A DNA stretch of 64,000 nt from Blasia pusilla (lineage: Eukaryota): positions 40,548,001 to 40,612,000 of the forward strand of contig CM114271.1 of assembly GCA_050084515.1 (NCBI GenBank), in the 5' to 3' direction. The notes below the pieces were generated by a model. It ran no database searches and was not told the origin of the DNA. It saw only the letters and a list, made by a program, of their open reading frames with translations. Each line of letters starts with the position of its first letter. Positions within the stretch are counted from its first letter, which is position 1. Both the position numbers and the translations under genes were made by a program. Below are positions 14,800-40,074 of this stretch, piece after piece.

Positions 14800-17700
14800 G
14801 GGAAAGTTGGACTAATGCAAACTTGAAGGAGTGAGGATGTTTTTAAATAAAACTATATAGTATGGTAGATAGTGTTAAAGACTATATATTGATGAGATTA
14901 TAAGAAATAATAAAATATCTGATGTTTAATGTGACCGTAATGAATTGGTAGAGAAGTGGAGTAAGTGGTGATTTGATTCAATCTTGTTGGAGAGCCCAGT
15001 GTGTGGTTCTTTTTAAGTAAATTTAATGCTACTCTATTATATGATGTATAATGCAAATTTAGATTGTACTTGTAAAAATTAATAGAGTGGCTGGTAATTA
15101 AATGTATTGTCAATGTTGTGTTTGTAATTTTTTTGAATTATGGTAAGTTTTGAATAGAATTGACACGAATTTGCAATGAAAGTTGCCAAATGATATCAAG
15201 AAAGTCACGTCTACTTTGGAGATACGTGAGGGATAATGATTGTCACAGGTAGTAGAATTGAATGTGACATTTCCAAGATGAAAATAGAATGTGAAGAGTA
15301 TAAGTGGGTGTACTAAAATGAAGTAACCATAGTTTGGTTACGTGCAAGCGGACTGTCGGGGAGTAAAAAGTTAAGAAGAGAAGCTCAATTGTGGGAAGTT
15401 GTAGCATTGTGTAAGTAGAAAGCAAATTGCAATGAGAGGATGTGTGGGGATTCGAGTAGGAGAGATAGAAGCAAGGCAAATGTAGGAGATTGTAGAAATT
15501 GGAAAGGATTGCATGTGCGGAAAAATATGTATTGATATAAGGAGTCTATCTAATGTGTATACATTGAAATATGGAAAGTTCAAAAATCAGAGCTGCATAT
15601 CTGGTTATAATTTAGAGCATAAAAGTCTATACAAAATAATCCTCAGAGTAACTGAAACTTCTGGTACGGACTGCTTATGAGTCGACTAGATGATAATGGA
15701 ATTATCATGTGAGTATGTGTCCAACAAAAGAGCATATGGCACTAACAGTATGTGGATGCTAATCTGGAATCACTTACGAGGAGTGACTCCATGATGTTTG
15801 CCTGAACTAGTAGTAAAGGATCTATTGCAATGAGCGGCCGAAGATGTTTGAAAAAGATCTTGAAATAGTATTGGCGTCCTTCAGCTTATCTTTATGAAAA
15901 TAAATCTAAGAGTTGAGAATGTCAGTCTCTTCATGAAGAGAGGACTCAAGGTCTTCATGTAAGTTCATTTGAATTCTCATAGAGGCAAGCTGCTCTTCAA
16001 CGTCTTGGAGTTGTGACAATGCCTGTTGGTAGATTGTTATAGGAACACTGTAGGAGTTCTCTTTGCACACATGTATCTATAGTCATGTTGACCTACATGA
16101 ATAGACAAAGTTGGTTAGAATTCAGTGGTGTGTTCGAATATTAAAGGCAGAGTGAACTAGAAAAATTGTATGTAGAGGATACAGATTTTAGGAGCAACAA
16201 TCCACCAGAGTATAAGATTAAAGCATCAAGGAAAACTTATGGAAGGGCTTAGAAATCTCTGACCTTGTAGTGTGAAGCTGAGAATATCAGATTGAAGGAT
16301 AGGAGAAAGAATATCATTACATTTAGAGAGTATCTCTGAGGTATGTAGTGTACTCCAAAGATTATTTGTTGCATGATTCTTAACTATAATATTGATGCAT
16401 TCAAAGTCTTTTATAAGCCCACGATGTATGCACTCATGGAGGTATGTCCATTCACTACATTCTGAAGATACAATTGCAAGGACCTGCTCTGATCTAAATG
16501 GTATATGTTGTAACAATAAGTTGTAAAAGAATTATTGCCATTGATGAAGTGGATGAAAGTCAATGAACCTTATTAAACGTGTGGTTGAACAAATATAATT
16601 TCCAAGATTGTCTATACCAACTACTAAAGAGGACAAGTGTGATTGAGATGGTTTCATAACCTGGTAATTACGCCAAAAATCTGTAAATATTAAGTTTTCA
16701 AGAAAATAAGGTCTGTATGAGTATAGTGCCACTGGATGGAAGCATGGGATTGAGGAGTTCTTATAAAGAGAAATGTGTTGATATGGTGGATTAGAGTCTA
16801 TGTATTTGATTGATTGAGATCTAAATATAATTGGTATTTGCATTGAAGTGAGTGAAGCTTCACTTGCAAAAACTAAGCGATTGAGGACTATACCTGATAT
16901 GAGTTTGAGATTTACTTCATCTAAGCTCTCTAATCCAAGACAACATGTTGTTTCCGTATCTATATGTAGGGAATGTGTAGGCTCTGATTTTAATGCATAC
17001 TTTAGTAAGTAGTAAGACCGATCCATGCTTATAACTCGTTGGATATTCATGTGAGCTCCCCATAAAAGTAATATCAATGGATGATAGGGAATTACGTTAC
17101 GATGGGTGGATGATGGTCTATAATATGTCCACTATAATGACTGTGGATGTATGTAAGCTTCTAACTTTAAATTAGTATGTGCAGAGAATCCTAGACGACA
17201 ATAGGGTCTTTGGTTTTTTTTTTTTTTCTAATGATAAAAAACATTCTTTGCAGCGATGTAACTATTTGGTAGTGACATACTCATTCAGGAATAGCAAGAT
17301 CTTATCAGAAGTTACAGTTGAGACAGACGTATTTGTAACTGGATTATCAAGAGAAGGTATATATGGACATATTTCATAAGTAATACGGTCTATATTTGAA
17401 TTATCAACCCATATATCATTTGGCAGTGGTGGCTTCCCCCTATCTTGTAATTCATACCTAAGAACATAGTTTGCCATTTTTCCTAGGAGTTGCGGACCGG
17501 AGAATATAAAGTTGGAAAGAAATGTGTGTAGCCTTGTATGGAAGAGTCGTGCACATTCTGCTGATGCATCTCTCCGAGTGAAAATTATATAGAAGGATTT
17601 GGGGAGGTTTTCAATGTGCTCAATCTCCATCCATGTTGTCGAAGAGATCTCATTAGAGATTAATGTGAGAAAAAAATGTGGCATGCCCCAAGCTTGGACC

Positions 17701-18100
17701 ATGGAATTTAAGTCTTTGAGGTGTTTCCTCTGTCTGCTTTGAGTCCCTGGAAGCTGTGGGATAATTGAGTGTTTTGACAAGTTTGTATACAACTCGTCTT
17801 CAGAGAGGTCAGACCTGTCCTTCCTCAATCTGTCAAGGTACCTATTAAGGAAGAAGGAGTTTGAGATGAGCAGAGGGAAATTGATTGTCTGAGCTGGTGC
17901 ATTACTAGTGGAAATGGTTTGTATAGTGAGAAGGAGCTAAAAAGCTGCCTAGATCTAAGTTTCATGTAGCCTGAAAATGACCCTATTCCTTTGAAAAATC
18001 CCTTCAAGTAAGAAAAGAGGAATGGAAATATTCCTTTCTCTATTGTTAACTTCTTATCGAGGGATGTGCATGTAGAATCCTGTTAGAAAATTCTCCTTTA
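14800..18100 (-). mobile_element. Degenerate Helitron RepHel remnant
   Basis: ORF 17262-17828 has LKDLNSMVQAWGMPHFFLTL and NYVLRYELQDRG (Rep HUH motif 1/2 region). ORF 16532-17077 has WGAHMNIQ...YYLLKYALKSEP (catalytic YxxKY motif). Homologous to 58150-60100. The outer limits are approximate. Confidence 0.75.
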
Positions 18101-20495: not shown

Positions 20496-22099
20496 CATAT
20501 TATAAATGATGGGAAAGTGCTTTATTTTTGCTAACACGTCTCCGTTTGACACGTGGTAATTGGGCAGCAATAAGATATTTCACATCTTACTGGAAACAAG
20601 ATTTAAAAAAAAAGTTGTGTGAACATCATTATCCCTTCCCTTCACGGGTATACAATAACAAAAAAAAAATCTTCAAACATTTTTTTATTTCCTCACTAGT
20701 TACGGCCCTTACATGTAGACTTGCACATAAATCCCTCTTCCAAGCGGCTCTATTTTCCTTCTTTTTCAGAATTCGCAATACAGATGTGTAGGTGTCGAAT
20801 CCATGTTGGCTAGCGCTTTGGCTGTATCATCCAATCCTAACGTACCACTGAGACATTTATACTATCTCAGGGCACGAACGACTATACGCACTTAAGTTTG
20901 TAATAATCACCAATTACTCCTAAAACGCCATTTGCACTATCGTTTGTGCGATGTCTCAGTGTAATTAAGCTCTCACGCTATAGAGCTCTTTCTTGACTAC
21001 TGTCTATTCATGCCACTGACACATAGTATTCCTTTCATGCTCCATTCGTTTCTTTCCACTTCTCGGAGTACTTCTCGTTTCCCACTACGGTGACTCTTCG
21101 ACACCCGGTCTTCCACTCCACATTCTTCGCTCCAACGCACAAATAATAGATTTCTCGAATGCCTCATACGGAATGTCTAGTGTTTTTCTTGTACTTACGT
21201 ACATTTCATTTTGTTTCTTTCTCTCCAGGCTTTCTTTTCCATCTCCAATTCAGTTCCCAATTGTGCTTTGTTTCCTTCACGACCAAGAACAACTCAGTCA
21301 TATTGTCGAACGCGCCCGTAGCAGATCCAATTTCTGCTCGTCATACCAGCTCACGCACTTACTCTGTCACGAAACTTGCCTACCTCCGCACTTTCACATG
21401 ACACAGGCTCGGTGCTTCCAACTGATTACCAAGCATATTATGCGTTGTTCCTGGCTGGTTCCTTCATATTCTACACTAATTCACCACTTCATTATAGGTT
21501 CTCGCTCATTTCCACACATGGTCGGTGCGTCCACCTCGTGTTTGCACATTTTCACCATCGTTATTGGGCGCTTTCATGCAGTTCAACATTGTTTCACCAC
21601 TCCATCAGAACTTCACGCTCATTTCCGCACTCTACTCGCCTCTACAGTCTTCCTTATCTTTGGTCTATTCATAATCAACCGATGTGAAAGAGCTCTCATC
21701 TACACTCTACTTACACTTTCTAAAGTTCTTCCATCACTTACCATCACCAAATCCACATAGTTATGCTCAGATATTAGCTCAGAGTTATTCAGCAAGATAT
21801 TCTTTGTTTCTACACTTTTCGGTAATGGCGGCAAACTACATTGTGTGACTTCAATCTAGTTTCAGGTAATTGTTACTTGGGAAGTGATTTTCCATTATAA
21901 AAATAGATTCGGCTCCTCCACTCATTTTACAATTGAGTTCCTCGTTCTTTATGTTTAACAATATAAATATCTTCCTTGTATTTGTGCAAATGTTTATGCA
22001 AGACTAAGTGTAATAATGCATTAGGATATGCACATGGAGACTATAAACCTATCAATCAACAAACATAGTGTGATAGGTATGTCATGCCCACTCCTAAAG

Positions 22100-23026
<927 letters not shown>

Positions 23027-23449
23027 GTCCGCCATAATTTTATCATAATCTTGAAGATGGTAATGGACCTCCAATAACACTAAATTAATTGTCTGAATAT
23101 CCAATGAAAGATTGAGAATTCCAATTCTCTGTTAAGAAGAAAAAATAAATAAGTTCAAACATAAATAAGTACATAACAAAATAATCATAAAAGAAATAAG
23201 AAAATTATTGACTAAACAAAAGGCATGCATTTGATGTTTAAAGTCGATCTTATGTTAGTGGAACTAAGAAATTTTCTCACACCATAGCCGGAAGAGAAGT
23301 TGTGTTACATAAAAGAATGATTGCAAAGAGTGTATGTAATGAATAATCAGTACAAATGACAACCACCTCTTCAAAGCAAGAAAAGATCTCTCTATCATCC
23401 TCCAAAAGTCTCATTTGAATAGCAATGTCTTTGAAGGTAGGATAAACCA

Positions 23450-24326
23450 CACCATCAATAATGTTATCTTATTGGAGGGACCCGATGGTATGGTTTGGAA
23501 GCACCATGTGCATAACTACACACCATGTTACCTTTCTAACATCGAAGGTATATTTGATTCGAGCTTAGCATTAGTTTATGCATGCTTGCGATGTATGTTG
23601 TGTGGTTTTGCCCGTGGTACAACCACTATGCTAGTATGTGATGGATGTTCAAGATGATGGCATATGGCATGTATGACGCCACCTCTCACTAGGGTTCCTC
23701 GGGGGTGATGGATGTGCCCCATATGTACATAGAGTAGATGCAAGATAGGTATAGATTTTGACTTGTACTTTTTATATGGATGAAAGAAGACGATTAACAA
23801 TGGGGGCATATGAGCACCGTGCCTTTTTGGTCATAGCGTCTTAGAGATGTATGTCATTGTAGCTAGGTTGGGATAGTTGGCTATTTGGAGTTTGAGGGAG
23901 TTAACCACCAGGTGGGGGTGGGGGCATTTGGAGATATTTTTGTACTTATCGTCTTGATGTTTGGATGCCATGAGTTAGCATGGGATTGTGTGTGTGTTTG
24001 TGTATGCAATCGATGACAACGATGCATGTTGTGTAGTGATGTGTATATGCACGACAATTATCAGATATTTTAGGATAGATTGCATAGTTCTAGTACAACA
24101 TCTTTGAGGATACTAGAGGACAGCCTTAAGGGGTTGAGAATGATTTTCCGAGGCCACGGGTAACCTCAAAGAGCAAGTTTCGTCTTCATTTCGGCTCATT
24201 TCGAGCCATATATACAAACTTGCTCTAGCTTTTGAGTACATTATTATTTCGAGCATAGTTCCTTGTCCAAATTGGGAAGTAGCCCTTGACCTCCTATAAC
24301 AAGCCAAGAGCCAAGGAAGCAACTTG
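23450..24326 (+). mobile_element. 3' remnant of the DNMT-Gypsy family: integrase tail, PHD, R segment, junction, partial L
   Basis: LLEGPDGMVWKHHVHN...CMLCGFARGTTTMLVCDGCSR..HMACMTPP...WMCPIC; G-rich tract; R at about 23928-24056; GACA-AT-TATCA junction; L homology to about 24326. Confidence 0.85.
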
Positions 24327-24447: not shown

Positions 24448-24770
24448 TTAACTTAATTCTTTGCCTTCATAATTGTATCTTAACACAAAATATAAAGTTA
24501 ACATAGGTTGATTTGTCATGTACAAACGTACAATAGGATATCTACATCCTTTTCGTGCACGTGTACGTGGATGATATTGCTTCTTATTCCAAGAGTAGTG
24601 AGAAGGGAACTCCAAATAAAGATGTTGTGTCGTCGAATGAGAAACATTTTTTGCAAACCATTGAGTGAGAGCGTGGTCCTTAGTTTGATCCACAAGGTTA
24701 GCTAATGAATCTTGCCCATGAAAATATACCATTTGACTATCTAGAAGATGGGCAATTAATGTCACAATAC
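24448..24770 (-). mobile_element. Helitron RepHel fragment (canonical type)
   Basis: ALTQWFAKN...HLYLEFPSHYSWN...IVRLY resembles the LTAWF..N...LY..FP..Y.W...IGRLY segment between Rep and helicase of canonical Helitrons. Confidence 0.6.
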
Positions 24771-25167
24771 TTGATTGCTTTGCATATGGACTAAACTTGA
24801 AGATTCGCCAACATGTTTCTGAAGAAGAAACGTAGCTTTATACCATACAATATAAATATTGTTAGAATCCGAGATTATATCATAGGAAAAAATAGTGATC
24901 CATGGAAAAAAAAGATCAAAATACCTTGCATCAAGATATAATAACGGCTCATCAATAGTATCCTTGGCTGATGTAGTATTTGCCAAGATATATGACATGG
25001 AATATATCAGATCCATTGTACACATACTTATAATCTTGGATTCTCAACATCCACTCCTCTGAGCACCATTAATCTGATCGGCCTCCTTGTATGAGAAGAA
25101 GCATAGATTGATGGTTATGAATTAGACGTCGAAGGAATCATAGTAATATGACGTAGGTGGTTTTAGG

Positions 25168-25260
25168 AGTAGCGTTACTAGGTTTATCTAACCCTATATT
25201 GCATCATGGTGCAGGGCACCATGATGCAATATAGGGTTAGATAAACCTAGTAACGCTACT
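25168..25260. repeat. Perfect inverted repeat, 45-bp arms, 3-nt loop
   Basis: 25168-25212 is the exact reverse complement of 25216-25260. Confidence 0.95.
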
Positions 25261-26626
25261 TGAGGATCCTGGTTGCATGTGCGGGGTTGCCCAGATGGAG
25301 GCCGCCGCAGTTGTGACGCGTGGAGCAGCCGCAGAGTTGGTTCCACAACGAGGGGAAGCCAGAAAACAGACTAGGCTTCCTCACTCTTTCACGTTGTCCG
25401 AAGCAATGAGGACCCCATCGATGGGTCCTCATCAAAGTTCCTTGAGAGTTGGTGATGTTGTTGGTGTGCAGGCACGGAGGGCGATGGGAGAAGCGAGTGC
25501 GACGACTCCTATTATTGATGCTCAGGAGGGGCATGTGTCGAGCACATTGTTGGGGGCGGCCACTGTTGTGTACCGCACTCCTTTATTTTCTGCTTCCGAT
25601 GTTATGACGTTGGGGGGTACGCCCGCCGAGGCTTTTCGGCTGGCCGTGTCGCTATGTGAGCGCGGAGTTGGAGTTCCTGCATCACGTTCAGAGGTGATTG
25701 CAGAGGAGGTGATGGACCTGCCCTTGGAGCGGATGCTCGGACCATCCACGTCAGATTCATGGCAGGCTGCGGCTGCTAGAATGGCGGAGATGCCCGCTAG
25801 ACCCGCAATAGAGCGTGCCATGGCTTCTCCTGGTGTTGTGTTGTTGGATAACCGAGGAGAGGTCTTCCAGTTGGTGAGTCATGGAGGTAGAGCTTTTAGT
25901 CCGCAGCGCGTCTTGTTGGATTCAGCAGCGCAACCCCTGATGTTGGGGAAAGCGTCATTGAGGATTGGGCTTGACGAGAGCGATGTGGAGCGTTGTCCAT
26001 TCCGGATCTGAGACATCCTTGGGTGGAGCGAGTACCGCACAGTATATCACCCGACAAGAGGTCGTGGTGAGGATTCGCCCGAGACATCCTACAGATGAGT
26101 CCGTGGTGCGTGTCAAGGCGATAGTGACTGATGCAGAGTCCTACGACGTCTTGGTTGGTGGAGCAGTGTTATACCCAATGGGTTTTTCCCTGGATTACTG
26201 GGAGGAGTCAGCGTCCGACAGAGCAGGATGGCAGTCACGTGATGGGTGCCTTAGCTCATTACCCGTTCGATTCATAGGTGCAGTGATCGAGCAACGGCTA
26301 GGAGAGATGGCGACCTTAGCAGCATTTACCAGTGCCATCACTTGGCCTAGTGATTTGATTGAGGGACATGTCCATGCAGAGGATACTCCTGTTCTTGACA
26401 TTTCTATGGAGAGGAGTGTTATGGTAGGTGCATCATTCCGTGGAGGAGAGGTGCCGATGTGGGGCTCGAGTGAGGAGCTTCGACGATTGGGAGATGAGCA
26501 CGTGCAGACCGCGTGGAGCGAGGCGTTTGCATCAGAGCGTGACAGGTCTGAGGAACCCAAGGTAGCCGGAGTGCTACGATGACACCCTTGGATACCACAC
26601 CCATTGTGTGGTGTACCCCGGAGGAG

Positions 26627-27580
26627 GATATTCGAGTGTTAGATCTCTTTGGAGGGATTAGCACCGGGTTAGCTACTGTTTTGTAGGCAGGAGTGCGAGT
26701 ACAATAGTACCTGTATGTGGAGAGTGATGATGTTGCAAGGCGCGTCTCACTATGACATGTGGCGCAGTTACGCCTACGTTTTCCCGACTTATTGTGTGCG
26801 TCCGCAGTACAGGGGTATCAGAGTTCCCTACCGAGGGATATTTCGTTGTTGGGGGCATAGGACTTAGAGTGGGTAGGGACCATTGATTTGGTCATTTCCG
26901 ATTGGCCATGTCAGGGCCAATCGAGTGCTGGACGAGGCAGCGGGTTGGCTGACACTCGGTCCAAGTTATTTTGGGAGATGTTGAGGGTCTTACGGCAGTT
27001 GCAGGAGCACCAGTCTCATTCTCCAGCCTATATTCTAGAGAATGTGCCGATCTTAGGAGACTCCCGGTCACGGGTGGTGACGAGTGCTCATCAGGTGTGT
27101 GCCTGGATCGGCCCAGCAGTGTTCTTGGATGCGGCGAGTGTAGGTTCTAGAGCCCATCGCCCGCGTCTATGGTGGACCAACTTGGTGCCCCATGTGGTGT
27201 TACGGAGGGCGTATGCGAGAGTGGAGCGCCCCTCCCATTTGTTGGTGGATTCCATTCTGGATCCAGGTCGTCGATCATAGGCAGTGAGGTATGATGATCG
27301 ACCACCGTTGACTGTGGTCAACAGGGTAGGCAGGCCGCGGGCAGCCTTGCCCACGTTTGTGAGTTTTCCTGCTTCCTATGCATACAAGGAGGCCGGTCCT
27401 GGCTTGGTTTGGGATGACCAAGTTCAGCGGTTAGTGGAGCCCAACGCCGACAAGAGAGAGCGAGCGATGGGATTTCCCACAGGAGTGACGGCAGTATCGT
27501 CAATGTCAGAGGCATCACGACGCCATGTCTTGGGTCAAGCGATGGACCTGAAGTGCTTGACATGGATCCTTAGCTTGGGA
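26627..27580 (+). pseudogene. DNMT3-like C5 cytosine methyltransferase domain within the retroelement polyprotein (premature stops)
   Basis: In the same frame as pol: IRVLDLFGGISTG (I), YVESD (II), DISLL (III), DLVISDWPCQGQSSAG (IV, catalytic PC), DTRSKLF (V), YILENV (VI), DAASVGSRAHRPRLWWTN (VIII), ERAMGFPTGVT (IX), RRHVLGQAMD (X). Confidence 0.93.
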
Positions 27581-27922
27581 GTGACTGAGCAACGTCGTAT
27601 GAGATCGCGATAGATCACAGCGGTTGCGTTGGTGAGCCCCATGCCTACCGAGACGGTGGAGGTAGTGGTTGGGGGCGAGACCCGAGGAGATCGGGAGAGA
27701 CACCCTTGGACTTCTTGGAATGTTTTGCAGGTACGCAAGGAGATGATAACCACAACATCAAGCGTGGCTTCGGGCACTGCACATGGAGGAGATCAGAGTT
27801 TGCAGTTGGCTGTAGGAGAGCGGCCGAGTGTTGTTGTTCGAGACGGGGTTGCACCATAGCAACCACCGATACCCATGCAGGAGAGTCCTACCGTAGTCAC
27901 GATGGAGACTTAGGAGCCAGAT

Positions 27923-30841
27923 ATGGGCCCTAAGTTGACAGGAGGAGAGCGGCGCCAAATACATCAATTCCTCAGGAGTTATAGGAGCTGCTTTGCGTTT
28001 AGCATGGAGGATTTGGGTACGCTGAAGGGACCGGGGATCCACATTGAGTTGTCGAGTGATACGCCGATCTTCCGACGACCCTACAAGTTTAGTGATATGG
28101 AGAGGGCTCTGATTCAGAGTAGGAGCCAGGACTTGGTTAGAGCTGGACTAGTGGAGATGTCGCATGGGGAGTATGCATCTGCCACTGTCATGCCTGCCAA
28201 GAAGGATGTGCATGGCAACTGGATGGATAGGCGGATGTGTGAGGATTACCGACCTATCAATCGGCAGACAAAGTCCGATAGGTATGCCATGCCCACCCCT
28301 GAGGAGATCTTTGATGCGATTGGTCACGCAAAGGTCTTTAGTTCATTATATTTGCAAGCCGGATACCATCAACTGCCTATCAGATTGGAGGACAGGCAGA
28401 AGACGGCATTTTGGGGCATCAATCCTCACGGGAAGGATTGTTTGTACCAGTGGAGGTTCTTACCATTTGGGTTAAAGAACGCCCCGACTGAGTTTCAGAG
28501 GGTCATGGATAGGATCTTGGCTGGTTTGGACTTTGCTAGGTGTTATATTGATGACATCGTAGTCTTTAGCGCCACGGTTGAGGAGCATGAGCGACATCTA
28601 GAGGAGGTGTTTCGACGATTGCAATTACATGGGCTGAAGCTACATCCAGGCAAGTGCAAGTTCTTCTACAACCAGATTGAGTACTTGGGTCATACGATAT
28701 ACCCAGGGGGCCTTGGTGTTCAGCAAACGAAGGTAGAGGCTATCTCATGCATTCCAAGCCCTACAGATGTGAGCCGTGTTCGTGCATTCATGGGATTGGC
28801 GAACTTCTATCGGCGATACGTCAAGGGATTCAGTTCGATTGCGGAGCCACTGACCTTGCTGACCAAGGTGGATCACGAGTGGCACTGGGGGGATGAGCAG
28901 GAGCGAGCATTTCAGTTGCCCAAGGACATGTTGACGTCTGCGCCCATCTTGAGGAGACCGATCAGGGGGCGTCCTTTCCAATTGCACACAGATTGGAGCA
29001 TGTTGGGGCTTGGAGCGGTGCTCACCCGGCATGATGATGAAGGTAGAGAGTTCGTGGTGGCTTACGCTAGCCGCTCGAACAACGCTGCAGAGGCAAAATA
29101 CAGCTCGTATGAGGGTGAGTGCTTGGCTGCGGTGTGGGCTGTCGTGCATTTCATGTGTTACATACTTGATAACCCCTTTACCATCATCATTGATCATCAA
29201 CCACTGAAGTGGTTGATGGAGTCCGACAAGCTTACAGGGAAGCTTGCGAGATGGGCTCTGTTGTTGCAGGAGTATGATTTTCAAGTGGTTCATAGACTTG
29301 GGACGCTCAACCAAGATGCAGATGGGTTGAGTTGTAACCCATGCTCGAGTCAGCGAGATGCGACTGGAGCTCGATGGCATGGAGAGAGTGATGAGGAGTC
29401 GATGCTAGGATGGCACGCGTCAGCCTATTTAGGCATGTTGGCTATGGAGAGCCAGAGTGTGGAGACTTCGATGGCGAGGTCTAATGGAGAGTCCTTGGAT
29501 CCCAAGGCCAGTGAGGAGACAACAAGGGGCCGAGATATTCATGATGATGGAGTAGTCTTGGAGTACCTTCGTACTGGCAGCGTTGCGAGCACTGTGGGTA
29601 CTAGAGAGCGAGATCGGATCCTACAGCGGGCCAGACGGTTCCGTTGGGAGGGGACACATGTTTTGAGGGTTTGGGAGGATGGCAGAGTACGCATAGTGCC
29701 GCATCCTTTGCAGAGAGCACGACTAATGCAGCATGCCCACGAGGAGTTGGGTCACTTTGGGGTGAAGCGGACGTACAACTTGCTCCAGATTCAGTATTGG
29801 TGGCGAGGCATGGAGAGAGACGTTGAGCAGTTTGTTGCCAGGTGCATGGTGTGTGATTGGGTCCGAGCATCGTTCAATGCTCCGACTCCACAGTTGCATC
29901 CATTACCGATCATGGGCTTAGGGTATAGATGGAGTTTGGATTTTGCAGAACCTTTGCCTTTGACAGAGCGTCACAGTCGTTATGTGTTGGTGATGGTCGA
30001 GCACTTCTCGAAGTGGATCGAGTTGGTTGTATTGCTTGACAAAGTGAGTGAGGGAGTAGCTTCTGCCTTCCTTGACAGAGTGCTAAGTCATTACGACGCA
30101 CCGGCTGAGGTGTTGACAGACCAGGGTATCGAGTTTTGGGGTGAGTTCCAAGCCTTGTGTGATCAAGCGCTCATCGACCATCGCACGACTTCGCAAGATC
30201 ATCTCGAGGCGGATGGATTAGCACAGAGAGTTGTGCAGACGATGAAGAGGGGTTTACGCAAGTATGGCTTGCAGAGAGGTCACCTAGGAGATTGGGACCT
30301 CCAGTTGCCATGGTTGGTGATGGGATACAGATTCAGCAGGCAGGCATCCTTAGCGTCTTTTTCACCGTACTTGCTACTTTATGGCCGAGAGCCAGATTTA
30401 CCTGCGGCCATTCGTCGAGATGCTGGTGAGGTTATGGACCTTGATGACCTAGATGTATGGGTGCGAGCATGTTCTCAAAGGGCTGAGTTATTTCAGAGAG
30501 TGATGCCCATGGCGTTCGAGAACTTGGCGACTGCACAACATCGGGATACGTTGAGGTATGCGACTATTCGGGAGGGTGGTTATCGACCAACTATCGGGAG
30601 GTTTCATCAGGGAGATTATGTCTACCTGCAGCAAACGGCACCGACGACGTTGGATGTGACTGCAGGGCGCACTATCCTGAGAGTGCGTGACGTTTTGCCA
30701 TCCGATGTTCTCTTGCTAGAGGGACGCGATGGTATGGTATGGAAGGACCATGTGCATAATTGTGCACCATGTCACCTTCCTAACATTGATAGTACAGTGG
30801 ATCCAAGCTTAGTAGTAGTTCTGCAGGCTTGCGTTGTATGA
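27923..30841 (+). CDS. Gypsy pol ORF: reverse transcriptase, RNase H, DDE integrase (972 aa open)
   Basis: RMCEDYRPIN, LPFGLKNAP, CYIDDIVV, GKCKF...YLGH; RNaseH motifs; integrase HHCC, WSLDF, LTDQG, ADGLAQR (the expected E appears as Q). Confidence 0.92.
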   Translation: MGPKLTGGERRQIHQFLRSYRSCFAFSMEDLGTLKGPGIHIELSSDTPIFRRPYKFSDMERALIQSRSQDLVRAGLVEMSHGEYASATVMPAKKDVHGNWMDRRMCEDYRPINRQTKSDRYAMPTPEEIFDAIGHAKVFSSLYLQAGYHQLPIRLEDRQKTAFWGINPHGKDCLYQWRFLPFGLKNAPTEFQRVMDRILAGLDFARCYIDDIVVFSATVEEHERHLEEVFRRLQLHGLKLHPGKCKFFYNQIEYLGHTIYPGGLGVQQTKVEAISCIPSPTDVSRVRAFMGLANFYRRYVKGFSSIAEPLTLLTKVDHEWHWGDEQERAFQLPKDMLTSAPILRRPIRGRPFQLHTDWSMLGLGAVLTRHDDEGREFVVAYASRSNNAAEAKYSSYEGECLAAVWAVVHFMCYILDNPFTIIIDHQPLKWLMESDKLTGKLARWALLLQEYDFQVVHRLGTLNQDADGLSCNPCSSQRDATGARWHGESDEESMLGWHASAYLGMLAMESQSVETSMARSNGESLDPKASEETTRGRDIHDDGVVLEYLRTGSVASTVGTRERDRILQRARRFRWEGTHVLRVWEDGRVRIVPHPLQRARLMQHAHEELGHFGVKRTYNLLQIQYWWRGMERDVEQFVARCMVCDWVRASFNAPTPQLHPLPIMGLGYRWSLDFAEPLPLTERHSRYVLVMVEHFSKWIELVVLLDKVSEGVASAFLDRVLSHYDAPAEVLTDQGIEFWGEFQALCDQALIDHRTTSQDHLEADGLAQRVVQTMKRGLRKYGLQRGHLGDWDLQLPWLVMGYRFSRQASLASFSPYLLLYGREPDLPAAIRRDAGEVMDLDDLDVWVRACSQRAELFQRVMPMAFENLATAQHRDTLRYATIREGGYRPTIGRFHQGDYVYLQQTAPTTLDVTAGRTILRVRDVLPSDVLLLEGRDGMVWKDHVHNCAPCHLPNIDSTVDPSLVVVLQACVV

Positions 30842-30975
30842 TGTGTGGTTCTGCACGTGGTGCGGCCACGATGCTAGTATGTGATGGTTGTTCGAGAGGT
30901 TGGCATATGGCATGTCTGACGCCACCTCTCACTAGGGTTCCTCGGGGATGATGGATGTGTCCCAGATATACATAG
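30835..30975 (+). pseudogene. PHD finger at the integrase C-terminus (separated by a 1-bp frameshift, one internal stop)
   Basis: CMMCGSARGAATMLVCDGCSRGWHMACLTPPLTRVPRG*WMCPRY fits C4HC3. The last Cys is intact in the 23590-23730 copy (WMCPIC). Confidence 0.88.
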
Positions 30976-31161
30976 AGGAGATACTAGGTAGGTTTCGATC
31001 CCGAATTTTTCTCTGACATGGATGATAGGAAGGTGACTAACGATGGGACCACATGAGCACCCGGCCTTCTTGCTCTTAGCATCCGAGAGATGTATGTCAA
31101 GGTAGGTAGGGATAGATGGCTATCTAGAGTTAAAGGGACCTAACCACTTGCTAGGGGGGCG

Positions 31162-31934
31162 ATTGGAGATATTTTGGTACTTCTTGTCTCGTTGTTTGGA
31201 TGCCATGAGTTAGCATGGGATCGTGCGTGTTTGTGTGCGTGTTCGGTGATAGCGATGTATGTTGTGTAGCGATGTGTATGCGCACGACAACTGTCACGTC
31301 TTTTAGGATAGATAGGTGAGATCTAGTAGAGCGTCTTCAAGAGTAGTGGAGAACAGGCATAGGAGGTCGAAGATGACCTGCTGAGGCCCCAGGAAACCTG
31401 AGAGAGCAGGTTTCCCCTTCATTTTGGCTCATTTGGAGCCATATTGAGGAACTTACTGTTTTAGGTAAGTACCATTTTAAGTATACGATCGACTTTATAT
31501 TTTTGGTAAGTGGCCCTTGACCTCCTTCATCAGGTCAAGAGCCAAGGAGGTGACTTGGGAGAATAGGTTACCATGGAGAGAGCTTGGGAGAGGGGAGGGG
31601 TATATATCCCAAGGAGAGAGAGCTTGAGAGCTCATTCTCTCTTTGTTGAACCTCTTGGCATGAGGCGGCGGAGCTATGGTCCCTTGCCTTGTGAGTGTAA
31701 CCCAAGCCTCTCATTAGGTGAGTGGGTTTAGTTTGACATGAGAGAGAGTGCACACCTTTGAGAGCTATGGTGTGAGATTGTGTAGAGAGCGATTGGATCT
31801 TACTTTATTGGAGATATTTTGGTGCTTCTTGTCTCGTTGTTTGGATGCCATGAGTTAGCATGGGATCGTGCGTGTTTGTGTGTGTGTTCGGTGATAGCGA
31901 TGTATGTTGTGTAGCGATGTGTATGCGCACGACA
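31162..31934 (+). repeat. R-L-R terminal structure: 128-bp direct repeats R1 31162-31289 and R2 31807-31934 flanking L (31292-31806)
   Basis: R1 and R2 differ at 2 of 128 positions. R1 follows a G-rich tract (TAGGGGGGCG). The R1/L junction is GACA-AC-TGTC. Confidence 0.93.
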
Positions 31935-34900
31935 ATGCCAAACGGGCACCATCTCCTCATCACTCTCTCCGTGCCATCGAGCTCCAATGTCATCTCTCTG
32001 ACTCAGACATGGGTTACGACTCAACCCATCTGCATCCTGGTTCAGCCGGCCTAGCCTATGAACCACCTCAAACTCATACTCCTGTAGTAACAAAGCCCAC
32101 CTGGCAAGCTTTCCCGTAAGCTTGTCGGACTCCATCAACCACCTCAACGGCTGATGATCAGTGATAAGTGTGAAAGGGTTGCCGAATAAATAGCACCTGA
32201 AATGTGCCACGGCCCACACTGTAGCCAAGCACTCTCCCTTGTAGGAGCTGTACTTTGCCTCTGCAATGTTGTTCGATCGACTTGCGTAAGCCACAACGAA
32301 CTCCCTCTCCTCGTCATCCCTCTGAGTAAGCACTGCTCCTAGACCCAACATGCTCCAATCCGTATGTAACTGGAATGGGCAACCCCTAACCGGTCTCTGT
32401 AAAATGGGTGAGGACGTCAACCTGTCCTTAAGCTCTTGAAATGCTTGTCCTGATCATCTCCCCACAACCAAACCTGATCAAGTCTCATTAACAAGGTCAA
32501 AGACTTTACGATCACACTAAAACCCTTGACATACCGTCGATAGAAGTTCGCCAGTCCAAGAAATGCTCGGACTCGACTCACATCTATAGGGCGTGGAATA
32601 TGCCCAATAGCCTCTACCTTCGTCTATTGAACACCTAACCTACTCGGGTATATGGTGTGTCCCAAGTACTCAATCTGCTCCTGAAAGAATCTGCACTTGC
32701 CTGGATGTAACTTCAGTCCATGTAACTGCAATCGCCAAAACATCTCCTCCAAGTGTCGCTCATGCTCCTCAACCGTGGAACTGAAGATAAGAATATCATC
32801 TATGTAACATCTTACAAAATCCAAGCCAGCCAGAATCCTATCCATCACTCTCTGAAACTCTACAAGCGCGTTCTTCAACCCAAATGGTAAGAACCGCCAC
32901 TAATACAAGCAATCTCTCCCGAACCGATCTATCCCCTGAATCGTTGTCTTCTCCTCGCCCTCCAACTCCGATAGGAAGCTGATGATAGCCAACAGGGAGA
33001 TCTAAAGTACTAAAGATCTTTGCATGCCCTACTGCGTCAAAGATCTCCTCAGGAGTAGGCATGGCATATCGATCTGACCTCGTATGTCGATTGATAGGAC
33101 GGTAATCTCCACACATCCGCCTATCCGTCCAATTGCCATACATATCCTTCTTCGCCGGCATGACTGTGGCATATGCATACTCCCCATGTGATAACTCCAC
33201 AAGTCCTGCCTCCAACAAGTCCCGACTCCTGCTCTCAATCAAGGCTCGCTCCATATGAGAATACCTATAGGGTCGACGAAAGATCGTCGTCTCACTAGCC
33301 AACTCAATCCGTATCGCGGGACCCTTCAGCATACCCAAGTCTCTCATACTGAAGGCAAAACAACTGACATGCCCTCTCAGAAACCTATGAACTCGCCGTC
33401 GCTGTCCTCCTATCAACTTGAGACCTATCATAGGCTCCCAAGTCTCCATCGTGACCTCACTTGGAGAGGACGCAACCTCCGGCTTTGGTTGCTATGTAGC
33501 AACCCTAGCCAACTCCGCAACAACCACTCCACTCTGACCTCCTACACCATGCTCCACATCCAAAAAATAACATGTGCTACTCTAGCCGCCTTCGCACTCT
33601 CTTCTCGAACGACGTCCCAGGAAGTCTATGGGTGCCTATCTCTCCTCGTCTCGCCCCTAGCCAATGCCTGTACAAGCCCTGTAGGCAATGGTCCAACTTG
33701 TGGACGTGACGGCATGGATGACACTTGCATCCGTCTCTGCTCAACCATACCTAGGCTGACTATCCATGTGAGAGAGTTGAGGTCCATCGCCTGCCCCAAC
33801 ACCTATCTCCGGGATGCCTCAATCATCCCTGGCACCACCATGGTATGGGTAGCGAACCCCATGGCGCGCTCGCGCTCCTCTGCTGTAGGCTCCTTCAATG
33901 CTCCGGTCACCTCATCCCAAATCATGCCTGGCCCTCCCTAACGAAAGGCATGGGATGCTGGGAAGCTCACCAACGTAGGTAAGGCTGCCCTCAATTCCCC
34001 CACCCTATTGGCCATGGCCAACGATGGTCTATCATCCCGTGTCACCACTTGAGATCGACGCCCTGAGCCCAAAATAGCATCCATTGTGAGATGTGGTGCT
34101 CTCTAGACTCCATCGTATGCTTGACTCAATACCTCTGATGGTATCAGGTTCGTCCACCATAGTCGTGGACGATGGGCACATGATCCAACTCTCGCCGCAT
34201 CTAATAACACAGCAGGTCCCAACCAAGACCTCACCTGATACACACTCGTCATCACACGTGCACGAGTGTCTCCCAACAACGGCACGTTCTCCAAGATGTA
34301 CGTTGGAGAACATGTCTGATTCTCCTGCAAGTGTCGTACTACTCGCAACATCTCCCAAAACATCCCTGACCTCGGATCCTGCAATCCAAATCCTCGGCCT
34401 GCTGATGAATGACCCTGACATGGCCATCCAAAAATCACCAAATAAATGGTGCCAACTCTATCTAGATCCTACGTCCCCCCCAAAGAGATGTCGGCGGGTA
34501 GTGTATGTTGATATCCACGTACTGCATATACTGGCAACAACTCATGATTCCTCTGAACCAATCTCGCCACATGAGGTAATGATACTCGCCGCGTGGTCTC
34601 ATCTCTCTCCACATAAAGGTACTAATGCACCCGTATGCCCGCCTGCAATACTGCAGCCAATCCGGTGTTAATCCCTCCGAAGAGATCTAACACCCTAACA
34701 CCCTCTTCTGGGCACTGCCACACAGCGGGTGTGGTATCTAGTGGGGAAAACGTCTCCACTCCAAGAGCCTGATCGCCACGTGACTCTCGCTTCTCCGGGA
34801 TAAAAGCATGACTCCACGCCTGCCTCACGAGGTCGTCGGCACTCCTCTGTAGCTCTCGAGTCGTACCCCACAATGGTGAAGAGGTCTCGCCAACATGGGA

Positions 34901-37900
34901 AGAGACACCCGCCATGACCTGTCTCTCCGTGGGACTATCTGCTATTGGGACATGCTCCGCATGTGCGTTCCCCTCCAACAATTCTCCTGGCCAGCTAACA
35001 CTTCCTGTGAAAGCCGCCAACGTGGTCACACACTCGCCTCGTGATCGACCACCTTGTCCCGCAAACTGCACGGGTAACTGACTCATCCGGCCGTCACCTG
35101 ACCGCCACCCTGGCCGATAAGCAACGGTCTCCTCCTGGAAGTCAAGGATGAATCCTAGGGACACAACACTGTACTCCCCACCAACACATCGTAGGACTCA
35201 GTTGGTGTCGTAATCGCACGTGTGCGCACCATAGCACTATCAGTCTCATGCTCTGGCTGGACTCTGACAACTATCTCCTGTTGAGTCATATACTACGTGG
35301 GTGACACGCCCCCAATCAAGGTCTGTATCTGGAAGGGACAAGGCTCAATGTTGGCCTTCTGTAACCCCAACGCTAAACACGCCGCCTTCCCTAACATCAA
35401 GGGTTGCACTCCTGAATCAAGTAGGATGCGCTGCGGGTGGTATACTGTCCCTGTCAGACTAACCAAGCAAAATACTCAAGCTCGATTATCCAGTAACACT
35501 ACTCCAGGTGTCACCACTCCTCGTTCTATGGCCGGCCGAGTTGGCATATCTACCAACTTCGCCGCCGCCGCATGCCATGACTCTGTGGGGAACGTCCCGA
35601 GCACCGACTCTGAGGGCAAGTCCACCACCTCCTCAATTACCTCTGAACAAGAAGCAATCATCTCTCCACACTCACACAACGTGGCGGCCAGCCGGAACAC
35701 CTCAGCTGGTCCAACTCCCAACGTCGCCAACTCTATGGCGGAAAAAAGTGGAGTCTGACTCACTCTGGTGGCCACCTCCAACACTATGGTCGACACTGAC
35801 TCTACTCAAGCCGGCATAGGAGTTGTCACTCCAACTCCTTGTGATGTCGACGTAGGTGCTTGAGCTGTAGGCACCGCTGGTTGCCGAGGCACCATCGATG
35901 GTGTGTGTAGTGCCTCCGACAATGTGAAGGACTGTGGAACTCTGGCCTGCCGCCCATCGGTCCTCTCTCGTGGGTCAATCTCAACTCCACCTCTCGATGG
36001 CTCGGTGCCTCTTGCAGCACCCGGAGTCACCACTGCAGCTGCCTCAACCTGGGTTGCACTACACATAAACCCCATACTGGCGAGATCCTCACCCGAGTCA
36101 GGGTAAGAGGTAGAAGCTAGAGTCACACTAGCTGCTCGCAGCACCGTGCCCTCCCTAAGCTGCATCATCGTCATGGCAGCAATCCTCTGCTCCAACTGAT
36201 CGATGCGTGAGAGAAGTGCCGGCTCTGGTGCTCCTGCTCCATCTCCTCTGGCTAGTGGTGGTCCTCTACCACCACGTCCAGGAAGGACTCCCCGACCTCC
36301 TCTACGACGACCACCCCCAGGCCCTCGGCCTACTTTTGGACGTGCCCCTCGGCGAAGGTCAAAACATCTATCCCTAGTGTGACCATATCTGTGGCAATAG
36401 TCACACTGGTGTTGTGGTGGGGCCATCCTCTGTGGCTCCTGAGCAATGGTGGTCGTTGGTGGTCCTCTCCCATGCTGTGGGCAGTCTCTCTGCCTATGGG
36501 CCCCTCCACACATCCAACAAGACCACATCGGTCCCTGTTGGGCAACATATGTAGGTACGGGTCATTGCCTCATAAGCTCACGGTACCCGCCCTGCTCTCT
36601 GGGCACACCGGCCCGCTCTCGTGGTACTGGTGCTCGCTGTGGCACCTGTGGGGTCACCGTCGCTCTTGGACCCGTCGACTCTCGAGAAAATCTAGCGGTC
36701 ACTACCTGCTCCTCACTCATGTTGAGCTCAATACGATCAGACAACTCAAAGACCACCTTCAATGTGGGCTTCGCTGTGTGAATCAGCACAGCATGTCGGA
36801 CTCTCCTCCATAGTTCTCGGTCCGTAACCCACCAATCATCGGACTCGATCGCGCCTCGATCACTCCATACGTAGCAATGATCAGCCTCCTCATGCATGTG
36901 AATGCCTCTCTCAAACTCTCACCCGATCGTCGCTGAAAATCCTGTAGACTCTTCAGCTTGTCGGTGCGTACGCCCTGGTAGCTCTTCCCCAATGGTCGGA
37001 AGAACTCCATTGTGGGGCTGAAGCTGGGTGGCCCTCTACCACCAGAGGTCTCTGCCACATCACCTGTCTCACTGACCTCCTCTCCATCTAGTCGTAGGGC
37101 TGATGGTGTGGGTCTCTCTCCTCTCACAATTCCATCATATGCCTCGCGACCACTAGTGGACACATACCCTGGAGCCCAATACATCCTCCACGCATCGATC
37201 TCTACTCAATATAGTGATCGAAACTCCATGTAGTCATCCATCGGAGGACCCTCCAAGTGCTGGAACAACCCCTTCCATGCCATGAAAGGGTTGAACCGTG
37301 TCAGGGTCCGTATCTCCTAGAAGTCGCACCACGTTTCTAACTCCTAGATAAAATCATCTAAGTCGATGGTGCCCACTACACCCGAGAAATGACGCATGCC
37401 CCGATGGCCCATGTCGTCCATCTCCTGCCAAGTACTACTGTCTCTGTCTGCGATCTCGTCACCAGACCCAGTGTCTAGTGATGACGATACAACCACGGAT
37501 GGATGTCGAGGTAGCTCCTCACTGGTAACCCCTCGGTATCTCACTCCACTCCGTGTCACACCACTACTATTGCTCACACTACCCCGTTCTTCCGAACCTT
37601 AGAAGAACGCCGTGATGACAAACCCTTTCTCACCCGCTCAAGCACTCAAACTCACCGAGAGTCTCCCACACACCTCACTAGCTCACCTATGCTAACATCA
37701 ATCCCGTGATGACATACCCGGCCTCACGCACACTCAACACTCGGGCTCACCATGAGCCTCCCAACTGACTCACCTAACGTAGCGACACTCTCTCGGGTCA
37801 TACACGCGACCCCTACTCGGCAACCGCCGTATATCCACCAACATGCTACACATGAATAGAATCTACACTCGTCACCATCACTGCACCCACCTACCACCAA

Positions 37901-39881
37901 CTACTACCCGATACCCAGCACTCTCAATCACACACGACAAGTGCGGGAAAAGGGACTCGAATGGGTAACCTGATCACGCCCTCCAACCTGCTGCACCATC
38001 AACATGCACTCCTCCACGTGATATGACAACCTCCGCAACACGACACTCTCCTCGACCCACACGTTGATCCTCCCGTCAACAGATGCGGACAACATGTCGG
38101 CATCATGCGTACTGCCCCTCCATCGTCAACGCCCTGTTGCGCCCAAAACATCATGTCGCGCAAACCTCTCCGTCCATCCCCACACGCGGCATGTAACCTG
38201 ACTCACCCTGGTCGGATCCCAACCATGTCTTCCCTTCCGACTACGTCCGACTTTACCACGTCACTCCCGCCAATTGTGGTACCATGTCGGACTGCGCTAC
38301 CACGTTCAGCCCTTGCAACTCCACCACATCCACTCGCACTTGGTAGCCTTGTCACCATGTTGACCTTCCACCACGTCCGGTCCTACCACGTTACTAACTT
38401 CACTCCGTCCGGCTAAACTGCAACCACATACCTCGGTCCTACCTCAGCCGACTCCATCCCCAAACTTGGACACGCCGCCCTATGCGGAAACATCCCTCCC
38501 ACTTCTCTCGAACTCGCGCTCGTGTGGCCTGCTTCCCCATGCGTGGCCTTTACTCCCTTCCTAGCTCTGTACCTATATAGGTACATACTAGGTACCACCG
38601 TACCTGGTCTAGAGCCTTAATGGCTACTCCCGCTCTTCCAACTGCGTGGCCACGTCTCTCCTTCAAATCCCCCCATTATGCTCTCTCTCTCTCTTGCATG
38701 GCGGACCTCTGTACCTAACCGTGGCTTCCCTAACCTCCGTGGATGCCTTCAACCTAACTGCCTTTAATGAGGGAGTGCAGCTCCCTATGTGCTCACCTCC
38801 GGCTCCCCCAAAATCTCGAAGCTGTGCGTAGCCCCGCACAACTCTCCCCTTCCCCAGCTTTCGGCTTGTCCTTAGGAGCTCACATGGCACTATAGATCGA
38901 CCTTCCTGTTTTGTGTCCTACTCCAGGCAGGCACGCGTCCCTATGGATGGACCCTCTCATTCCTCCTACTTTGGAGTCATAATGACTCTCAAGACCCTCT
39001 CTATCCTTCCGGCCAGGCTTGCCTCCGCGTCATGTACCTGTGTGTAGCCCGACCCCTATCACCTGCACGACCTAACCCTAGGCGACCTAGCCGCCCTTTA
39101 CTTGAGAGCCCCCTGGCGGCTACAAGCCCTAACTCTCCTTCCTGCTAAATCCCGACATTCCCGCTATTAGACGTCGCTACACCTGCCGTCACAACCTGCG
39201 CTAAATCCTGTTGTTGTCCCCCATCAATCCACACCAGCAAAATGTGAGAAAAATGGATTGCGCTTCCGCCCACGGTCTTCTGAACAGAAAAATGACCAAC
39301 ACCTGCAACACACGTGTCTCCAGGGGCTCCCGACCAAGGCAACTCGCTTGCCTACCTGCATACAACGAATTTCCCACCAGCCCCATGACATCTTTCTCAT
39401 GTAAAAATAAAGAGTAGTAAAAATGGCACACCTGGCCTAAAACTCCACTCCTCAATCTACATCGGCATATCGAGCCTCGTCCACCCTGTGCTATCAAGGA
39501 ATCCGGACGCTAGCACCCTAGTCCTATCTCACACACATACAAGAGAGGTGCTCCAACGGCCCAACATGAGAAAGATGCTTAGGAAAGCCACCTTCCTCTC
39601 TTATATAGGGTTGGGAAGAGCCAAAAGGCTCTTCCCCTAAAAATAGCCCTCCCCTTGGTAACCTACGCGTACAGGTTACCAGGGGTGGGCGACCTGGTCA
39701 ACAAGTCACCCGGCTGTGAAAGACCTCAACATGAAAGATATCAGAAACGACGTTCCTGACACAATGGACCTATCCTCGACCTCATACGACACCGTGGGAC
39801 AAAGTTACACTCAAGATAGTCCGCTGGCTCCTACACCCTATCCACGATAGATCTCGGCCTATCGGCTACTCAGATGTGACA
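31935..39881 (-). mobile_element. Ty3/Gypsy-type retroelement copy 2, 3'-truncated after RNaseH: L-type 5' end, long leader, gag (2 CCHC), protease, C5 DNA methyltransferase, RT, RNaseH
   Basis: Starts TGTCAC at 39881. gag from about 37577 with CWMCGGAHRQRDC and CDYCHRYGHTRDRC; ILLDSG protease near 35420; DNMT; RT with YIDD; RNaseH cut at 31935 by copy 1. Many stops and frameshifts. Confidence 0.93.
33750..34700 (-). pseudogene. DNMT3-like C5 cytosine methyltransferase domain of copy 2
   Basis: VRVLDLFGGINTG; LVIFGWPCQGHSSAG; DPRSGMF; YILENV; DAARVGSCAHRPRLWWTN; ERERAMGF; VLGQAMD. Confidence 0.93.

Positions 39882-39968: not shown

Positions 39969-40074
<106 letters not shown>

Follow-up and report, generated by a model that had tools for sequence, protein, structure and literature searches.

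The window analyzed here, a stretch of 64,000 nucleotides of Blasia pusilla DNA (assembly GCA_050084515.1, contig CM114271.1, positions 40,548,001 to 40,612,000 of the forward strand), contains copies of a Gypsy retrotransposon family that carries, at a fixed position, a cytosine-5 methyltransferase (C5-MTase) domain of the DNMT3 type. We favor, with a probability of roughly 0.8, the reading that these copies are dead, bryophyte-type members of a group of elements with the Ty3/Gypsy order of domains and split terminal repeats (A-coding region-B-A-B), in whose intact relatives a first open reading frame (ORF1) would encode Gag, an aspartic protease (PR) and the DNMT, and read-through of a UAG codon would add reverse transcriptase (RT), RNase H, an integrase (IN) and a PHD finger. 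Plants silence transposons chiefly by cytosine methylation, and a transposon with its own de novo methyltransferase is therefore a paradox. To our knowledge, such an enzyme has been described solely in a dinoflagellate and in a charophyte alga, both of which are hard to manipulate.

A DNMT3-type domain at a fixed position in a Gypsy family

Self-comparison of the window revealed four copies or fragments of one retrotransposon family, located at 22 to 40 kb and 53 to 56 kb. Copy 1 (25261-31935, + strand) contains a DNMT3-like C5-MTase domain at 26552-27601 (+, frame 2) that has motifs I to X and five premature stops (four TAG and one TGA). The motifs lie in the interval between protease and RT and follow each other in unpermuted order: LDLFGG (motif I, 26639-26656), WPCQG (IV, 26903-26917), ENV (VI, 27038-27046), AHRPRLWWTN (VIII, 27152-27181), ERAMGFP (IX, 27458-27478) and LGQAMD (X, 27530-27547), all on the + strand. 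The translation of 26552-27601 in frame 2, with X at the stops (P0001), matched Pfam PF00145 with an E value of 1.1e-9 and 38.6 bits (curated cut-off, 22), and copy 2 (33599-34798, -) matched the same model with an E value of 2.9e-9, again passing the curated cut-off. The catalytic motifs of C5-MTases (I, FxGxG; IV, PC; VI, ENV; VIII, RxR) are present in both copies. When an intact Marchantia domain was compared with the window by tblastn, it matched 26579-27601 (+) in copy 1 and 34750-33728 (-) in copy 2, where the domain (33728-34750, -) is interrupted by five TAG stops; in copy 3, only the first 64 residues were matched (55104-54913, -). Thus, the motif order and the three positions in the window, both of which had been proposed by an earlier reading made from the letters alone (the sequence-only reading), were borne out; the lack of a significant C5-MTase match, which would have spoken against that reading, was not observed.

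The domain was then ranked against known methyltransferases. In a comparison with all PDB sequences, each of the 29 matches at E ≤ 1e-3 was a DNMT3A, DNMT3B or DNMT3C. A profile built from 16 family members scored 96 to 75 bits with DNMT3, 60 to 51 bits with DRM, 39 bits with M.HhaI and 35 bits with DNMT2, and no DNMT1 or CMT was matched in the PDB at E ≤ 1. Since the domain is colinear with DNMT3A and its N-terminal half aligns to the C-terminal end of DRM chains, it is unpermuted. A naturally intact relative (L001:3195-4508) was modeled with AlphaFold (mean pLDDT, 80.6; residues 8-353 well ordered, the final ~85 disordered). In a Foldseek search with this model, DNMT3A, DNMT3B or DNMT3C accounted for all PDB matches listed (ranks 1 to 49), with a top E value of ~2e-18 and TM scores by target of 0.76 to 0.83 against isolated catalytic-domain chains. 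Ranked by sequence and fold and not by phylogeny, the methyltransferase is nearer to DNMT3 than to DNMT1, CMT, DRM, DNMT2 and bacterial enzymes, and the sequence-only reading was right in setting it apart from the permuted DRM type. The element-borne domain has no introns, and Pfam detected no PWWP or ADD reader domains in P0001, P0006, P0022 and P0030; some eukaryotic DNMT3s also have no companion domains (PMC12344493). A search of the Atlas returned nothing beyond generic DNA_methylase clusters.

DNMT3 enzymes are DNA methyltransferases, and it is very improbable that the element's enzyme instead methylates RNA, be it the element's own or the primer tRNA, in the manner of DNMT2: the family profile scores 96 bits with DNMT3 and only 35 with DNMT2. 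What speaks for such a target is that RNA methylation has been raised for a LINE-borne DNMT (de Mendoza 2018, PMC5890265) and that a position in the Gag frame would put the enzyme beside the packaged RNA.

At E ≤ 1e-3, an exhaustive protein search returned 3537 representatives, of which 234 reached E ≤ 1e-30; polyproteins of 1000 to 3400 residues are frequent among them. The domain arrangement is shared by 71 related loci in metagenome contigs and by more than 20 named bryophyte proteins. The named relatives, with 46 to 69% identity, come from eight bryophyte species, namely the liverworts Marchantia polymorpha, M. paleacea, Riccia sorocarpa and Calypogeia fissa and the mosses Sphagnum fallax, S. 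troendelagicum, S. tenellum and S. jensenii; a more distant relative is a "pol" protein of Scenedesmus, and no Klebsormidium protein was among the named matches of the protein searches. One relative (P0022) is a single ORF of 2358 amino acids with the order PR-DNMT-RT-RNase H-IN-PHD. Because the position of the domain recurs in the window copies, the 71 loci and the named proteins, the DNMT is a trait of the family, as had been surmised from the window, and it is present across the family rather than missing from most of its members. A host DNMT3 gene or pseudogene that happened to lie beside or inside a Gypsy element could be imagined from a single locus and from nothing beyond it; the recurrence in three window copies, in the 71 metagenome loci and in named proteins of eight bryophyte species refutes this idea, and the domain is without introns and without PWWP or ADD, which leaves chance neighborhood with a negligible probability.

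A tree was calculated with FastTree from 72 rows (all named sequences plus every third other one) out of 184 domain sequences covering at least 280 profile positions; the Sphagnum rows did not reach this cut and are thus absent, and the tree contains transposon-type sequences only. Copies 1 and 2 fell into a clade of 19 rows with a support of 100, together with seven Marchantia rows, two Calypogeia rows, L001, L002 and L005, and lay outside the Marchantia-Calypogeia subclade. Judged by their sequences, the window copies are bryophyte-type members of the family. A wider radiation in the tree, with P0028-type proteins, includes the Scenedesmus protein. In P0028, which is from a metagenome, the DNMT is found between RNase H and integrase instead of before the RT, and a PHD finger is again located 3' of the integrase; the DNMT module has apparently changed its place within Pol. 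According to precomputed lists, which give no order, P0026 and P0312 to P0317, also from metagenomes, have these domains as well.

Element layout and the stop codon between DNMT and RT

Copy 1 is truncated at its 5' end within gag. The C-terminal part of gag and the protease region (25261-26011, +, frame 2) align to copy 2 from 25535 onward. No protease model was matched in the Pfam scan of copy 1; by eye, the active-site motif DSA was identified at 25919-25927 (+), and LLDSGAQP occupies the equivalent position in the Marchantia relatives. The interval between protease and DNMT (25962-26582, +) is now open in frame 0 by virtue of two frame changes, near 25960-26010 and 26550-26580; in copy 2 and in Marchantia P0006, it runs unbroken into the DNMT. 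Downstream of the DNMT follows, past a short linker, a stop-free ORF of 975 codons (27914-30838, +) with Pfam matches for RT (RVT_1, 28232-28699), RNase H (RT_RNaseH, 28970-29275), the integrase zinc domain (Integrase_H2C2, 29711-29854) and the integrase core (rve, 29924-30193), all on the + strand. This order of PR, RT, RNase H and IN, with a DDE integrase, is that of Ty3/Gypsy elements. A PHD finger (PF00628, E value of 6.3e-11) lies 3' of the integrase at 30835-30966 (+), shifted to frame 1 and containing stops; in the relatives P0022 and P0028, the C-terminal PHD finger is in frame.

The ends are those of split repeats. Copy 1 terminates in repeat B1 (31162-31290, 129 nt), repeat A2 (31291-31806, 516 nt, with a TATA-like stretch near 31600 noted by eye) and repeat B2 (31807-31935, the 3' end of the copy, 98% identical to B1), all on the + strand, and copy 2 sequence, on the - strand, adjoins it from 31936. 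The arrangement B1-A-B2 corresponds to the 3' part of an A-coding-B-A-B layout, which was found entire in two related loci: in L043 (A1, 1676-1975; B1, 10238-10350; A2, 10350-10649; B2, 10693-10805) and in L024 (A1, 1768-2074; B1, 10378-10494; A2, 10499-10837; B2, 10855-10971), both without a B at the 5' end. Four further loci (L051, L010, L047 and L033) have pairs of B repeats 379 to 477 nt apart. Two identical long terminal repeats (LTRs) were found neither in L043 and L024, whose ends are of the A-coding-B-A-B type, nor in the window, which has B-A-B. Ordinary LTRs were rejected, on the grounds that blastn gave no match of the 3' end of copy 1 to the 5' region of copy 2 and that the repeats of related loci are split. 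In copy 2, ~2.4 kb separate the presumed A repeat from the start of gag (near 37470), and the equivalent distance in L043 was estimated at ~1 kb; the extra stretch (38000-39400, -) is rich in G+C and has neither a long ORF nor a match elsewhere in the window.

Between DNMT and RT, both window copies contain the same nine bases in frame, TAG CAA CCA (copy 1, 27857-27865, +; copy 2, 33494-33486, -), and this stop would be the terminus of ORF1. A stop followed by CAA and YYN is present at this boundary in 43 of 49 tblastn matches from related loci, representing 35 distinct contexts of 120 nt. The sequence was TAG CAA CCC in 20 matches, TAA CAA CCC in 9, TAA CAA TCA in 5, TAG CAA CCA and TAA CAA CCA in 3 each, TAG CAA CTA in 2 and TAG CAA CTC in 1; 6 matches did not have the pattern, and in 4 of these, CAA appears by eye to have turned into TAA. 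The Marchantia gene models P0006, P0007, P0009, P0010 and P0014 and the Calypogeia model P0198 terminate 95 to 100 residues past motif X, that is, at the conserved stop, and two further gene models span it by a predicted intron. L001, a nearly intact element (6810 bases) in a metagenome contig that ends within the integrase, has three ORFs in the same frame (957, 438 and at least 766 codons) which are split solely by two TAG codons. The type I leaky-stop motif of tobamoviruses is UAG_CAR_YYA (Firth and Brierley 2012, PMC3542737), and CAR YYA is matched exactly by both window copies and by the L001 group. Since a conserved UAG, set in a leaky context, lies between Gag-PR-DNMT and RT-RNase H-IN, the DNMT would belong to the Gag-protease frame and be produced at the level of Gag and not of Pol. 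The element is thus probably composed of ORF1 (Gag-PR-DNMT), a leaky UAG and ORF2 (RT-RNase H-IN-PHD). The sequence-only reading had placed the methyltransferase inside a Gag-Pol polyprotein, in frame with pol; the position upstream of the RT stands, but the conserved UAG divides the coding region, and in copy 1, eight in-frame stops (26552-27913) and two frame changes break the proposed continuity.

According to the reading that we favor, the ORF1 product of intact relatives would contain Gag with two CCHC knuckles, the aspartic protease and the DNMT3-type C5-MTase and would end at a UAG with CAA CCA or CAA CCC behind it; through in-frame read-through, it would be extended by RT, RNase H, the DDE integrase and the C-terminal PHD finger. 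With a leaky stop, most of the product would be Gag-PR-DNMT and a smaller part Gag-PR-DNMT-Pol. The DNMT might then accompany Gag into particles or the nucleus and methylate the new cDNA or the insertion site; it may be released by the protease and packaged, as suggested earlier from the window, and the PHD finger may couple the integrase to the state of histone tails.

The stop could also be a true terminator, with RT-RNase H-IN made from a spliced or subgenomic RNA, by reinitiation or in trans, and no read-through at all. An ATG is present three codons into the downstream ORF of copy 1 (27923), CAA CCC is more frequent among the loci than the exact CAR YYA, and the RNA depth (see below) over RT-IN is about twice that over gag-PR-DNMT. 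However, ORF1 and ORF2 always share one frame, CAA is the next codon after the stop in 43 of 49 matches, and CAR YYA is exact in both window copies and the L001 group; the higher depth over RT-IN may stem from the easier mapping of conserved RT reads from other copies. On balance, we regard termination without read-through as unlikely.

Constraint, decay and transcription

Between copies 1 and 2, the proportions of nonsynonymous (pN) and synonymous (pS) differences were 0.214 and 0.711 for the DNMT and 0.125 and 0.62 for the RT. Comparison of L001 with nine loci of other subfamilies gave a pN of 0.24 to 0.26 and a pS of 0.67 to 0.72 for the DNMT. Between subfamilies, the DNMT is under purifying selection and as constrained as the RT; the omega values (~0.1 to 0.2) are rough because synonymous sites are saturated, but the constraint is clear nonetheless. 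A ratio near 1 with loss of the PC and ENV motifs, the outcome that would have spoken against the sequence-only reading, was not observed: pN/pS is far below 1 between subfamilies, and PC, ENV and RxR are kept.

Residues C120, Q121, E163, R203, R205, N210, E303 and G328 are invariant in 16 of 16 diverse members. This bears on the question of whether the domain has been kept as a pseudo-enzyme or a nucleic acid-binding module, for particle assembly or chromatin tethering, that does not methylate DNA. In favor of such a role, motif X reads LGQAMD, with the usual asparagine missing, and the domain of KnitGypsy-Dnmt3, a Gypsy-type element of the charophyte Klebsormidium nitens, gave no methylation in yeast, a result called inconclusive by the authors; human DNMT3B was likewise inactive in the same test (de Mendoza 2018, PMC5890265), which takes weight from the negative outcome. 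Moreover, the catalytic Cys-Gln, ENV, RxR and the Glu of motif IX are among the invariant positions, and the predicted fold matches that of active DNMT3 domains. We therefore consider a module without methylation activity quite unlikely. Because of the yeast result, activity is not known for any Gypsy-borne DNMT3 to date.

All copies in the window are dead, as evident from premature stops, frameshifts and truncations. Copy 1 has eight in-frame stops in 26552-27913, one of which, at 27857-27859, is the conserved stop of the family; the seven premature ones upstream of the RT are accompanied by two frame changes, the shifted PHD finger and the missing 5' end. In copy 2, the 400 codons around the DNMT contain six premature stops, the RT is frameshifted and the 3' part is missing. 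The premature stops are found at positions with Gln, Trp or Arg in relatives, which fits decay by C-to-T and G-to-A changes. In the 71 related loci, in-frame stops comprise 174 TAG, 118 TGA and 113 TAA codons, again at Q, R and W positions. This mixture rules out that TAG is read as a sense codon or that all TAGs are programmed, as does a Gln in copy 3 where copies 1 and 2 share a stop. Two stops are common to copies 1 and 2. Their inheritance from a dead ancestor was ruled out by a pN far below pS; since, in addition, 10 other loci have a stop at position 94, the common stops are best seen as parallel hits at mutable Gln codons.

The distribution of stops is uneven in two respects. In the DNMT regions of copies 1 and 2 (26552-27913, +, and 33599-34798, -), TAG accounts for 12 of 13 premature stops, with ~48% expected from the counts of CAG, CAA, CGA and TGG in the intact RT-IN ORF at equal transition rates (P ~1e-3), and CGA codons, which contain CpG, are barely hit; the excess may reflect a CAG/CTG-biased mutation process in the host genome. 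In copy 1, there are no stops in the 975 codons of the RT-RNase H-integrase ORF but seven premature ones in the preceding 454 codons (P ~7e-4, allowing for 48 versus 88 stop-prone codons). The 98% identity of B1 and B2 suggests a young insertion. Conceivably, copy 1 arose by recombination of a live copy with an older, dead one.

Transcripts of the family in the host come from relatives of copy 1; copy 1 itself is hardly transcribed or not at all. In three RNA runs, whose organism label is shared with the best-matching DNA runs, 5549 to 6059 reads per run mapped to copy 1, but nearly all were 85 to 99% alike to it, and just 1 to 5 reads per run reached at least 99%. The first mate was mostly on the - strand (~6- to 50-fold in most bins), which in the usual stranded libraries corresponds to sense RNA. 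Reads from all three runs skip 1071 nt in 28027-29099 (9 to 23 reads per run, with ends GG..AA that are not intron-like) and 504 nt in 31098-31603 (4 to 8 reads per run); the skips probably stem from deletion derivatives of the family that are transcribed.

As to the remaining copies, copy 2 (31936 to ~39880, -, with an approximate 5' limit) is truncated at its 3' end within RNase H; its gag, with two CCHC knuckles (35809-36561, -), is followed by the protease, the DNMT and the frameshifted RT. Copy 3 (53434-55953, -) consists of gag-PR and the first DNMT motifs (to 54913); past a (GA)n run, it continues with pieces resembling the A-B repeats and the integrase-PHD end. Copy 3 is enriched in AT and strongly decayed. 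Fragments of a fourth copy (22047-24326, +) comprise an RT piece, the tail of A, B, the integrase C terminus with the PHD finger, B and the head of A. Three copies have long (GA)n/(CT)n runs at or near their edges (22729-22909, 39939-40129 and ~54850-54900), and a perfect inverted repeat of 45 nt with a 3-nt spacer (25168-25260, 100% complementary) adjoins the truncated 5' end of copy 1. Other elements in the window are the remains of Helitrons at 16535-17936 (-) and 24448-25043 (-) and a separate retrotransposon with a Copia-type RT at 56936-58028 (-; RVT_2, E value of 3.9e-28). Of the Helitron remains, 17265-17936 matched Helitron_like_N (E value of 5.8e-15); the ORFs at 16535-17131 and 24451-24837 had no Pfam match and are Helitron-like by eye only.

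Relation to known elements and significance

DNMT-carrying retrotransposons, which the sequence-only reading named for dinoflagellates and charophytes, do have a precedent in print (de Mendoza 2018, PMC5890265). By its sequence features, the window family answers to the description of the streptophyte Gypsy-DNMT3 elements, as exemplified by KnitGypsy-Dnmt3: both have the Gypsy set of domains, including a DDE integrase, and the coding region of both includes a DNMT3-related domain that is unpermuted and free of introns; the repeats are of the DIRS type, in the order A-coding-B-A-B, and the DNMT is under purifying selection in both (Ka/Ks < 0.2 for KnitGypsy-Dnmt3, compared with a pN/pS of ~0.3 between subfamilies here). 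The hosts differ: that element resides in an alga, whereas the present family is of the bryophyte type, with named relatives in liverworts and Sphagnum. The UAG-CAA-YYN stop and the PHD finger are also unmentioned in the main text of PMC5890265, in which "PHD" and "protease" occur 0 times, although KnitGypsy-Dnmt3 may have them too. SymbioDIRS-Dnmt3 of Symbiodinium resembles the present elements in having a DNMT3-type domain in a retrotransposon with A-coding-B-A-B repeats, and its domains catalyzed de novo CG methylation in yeast; however, it is a dinoflagellate element with a tyrosine recombinase instead of a DDE integrase, and its acquisition of the domain was judged independent by the authors (PMC5890265). 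The host DNMT3s of animals and non-seed plants (e.g., PpDNMT3b; Yaari 2019, PMC6453930) have the same catalytic type, motif order and fold, but the element DNMT differs from them in having neither PWWP/ADD nor introns and in lying inside a Gag-PR frame.

Murine leukemia virus has an in-frame UAG between gag and pol, and in tobamoviruses, an in-frame UAG with a type I context sets the ratio of upstream to downstream product. The window copies match the CAR YYA of this context exactly, but the second codon is CCC in most element relatives, the boundary lies after protease and DNMT and not after Gag or within a replicase, and read-through here is inferred from the context. A chromatin reader fused to the C terminus of the integrase is also known from chromoviruses, in which it is a chromodomain and not a PHD finger (PMC6317226); PHD fingers are reported to be common accessory domains of green-algal transposons (PMC8557442).

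Papers from 2025 and 2026 speak of "streptophytes (Gypsy-DNMT3)". No report of a DNMT-carrying retrotransposon in a land plant was found in the literature covered, which included main-text passages of PMC12344493, bioRxiv 10.64898/2026.05.21.726589, PMC6453930, PMC11982613, PMC9985172, PMC6317226 and PMC11244446; bryophyte sequences or a domain map may be present in Supplementary Figs 13-14 of PMC5890265 and in Fig. S3 of PMC12344493. The suggestion that the radiation is undescribed therefore needs to be divided: the kind of element is already published for Klebsormidium, and its presence in land plants was not found in print within these limits. What is added here is the spread in bryophytes, the conserved leaky-stop context that would place the enzyme in the Gag-PR frame and the PHD finger.

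Several points weigh against the favored reading. Every window copy is broken, and a full-length, stop-free DNMT match is present in just 3 of the 71 related loci (L001, L002 and L005). Omega is 0.45 to 0.77 within one subfamily, as expected of decaying copies, and gives no support, and the values between subfamilies suffer from saturation of synonymous sites. The DNMT3 placement is a ranking and not a position in a tree with reference DNMT families, and the likeness to the Klebsormidium elements is one of description. At the boundary, CAA CCC stands in place of the exact CAR YYA in most loci, the frame of more distant relatives (e.g., P0022) is continuous, without a stop, and the second stop of L001 (TAG AGT, upstream of the DNMT) is not conserved. 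Finally, the sole published test of a Gypsy-DNMT3 domain, that of Klebsormidium in yeast (PMC5890265), gave no methylation.

For the annotation of bryophyte genomes, the findings mean that many gene models named "hypothetical protein" or "DNA (cytosine-5)-methyltransferase" are ORF1 of such elements and are not to be counted as host DNMTs. The occurrence of this kind of element in liverworts, among them the model species Marchantia polymorpha, and in Sphagnum, with the enzyme upstream of a probable leaky stop, leads to testable hypotheses on dosage, packaging and target, and the bryophyte spread, the leaky-stop context and the PHD finger can all be tested in Marchantia. Only tentatively, and with the odds against it, do we propose that a lineage still active in bryophytes makes a working DNMT3 in an abundant Gag-PR product, uses the leaky UAG for a little Pol and places 5-methylcytosine on its own DNA or its landing site, guided by the PHD finger of the integrase. 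If this were true, land plants would have their first system of de novo methylation encoded by a transposon, in the tractable host Marchantia, and the purpose of transposon-borne DNMTs would become directly testable.

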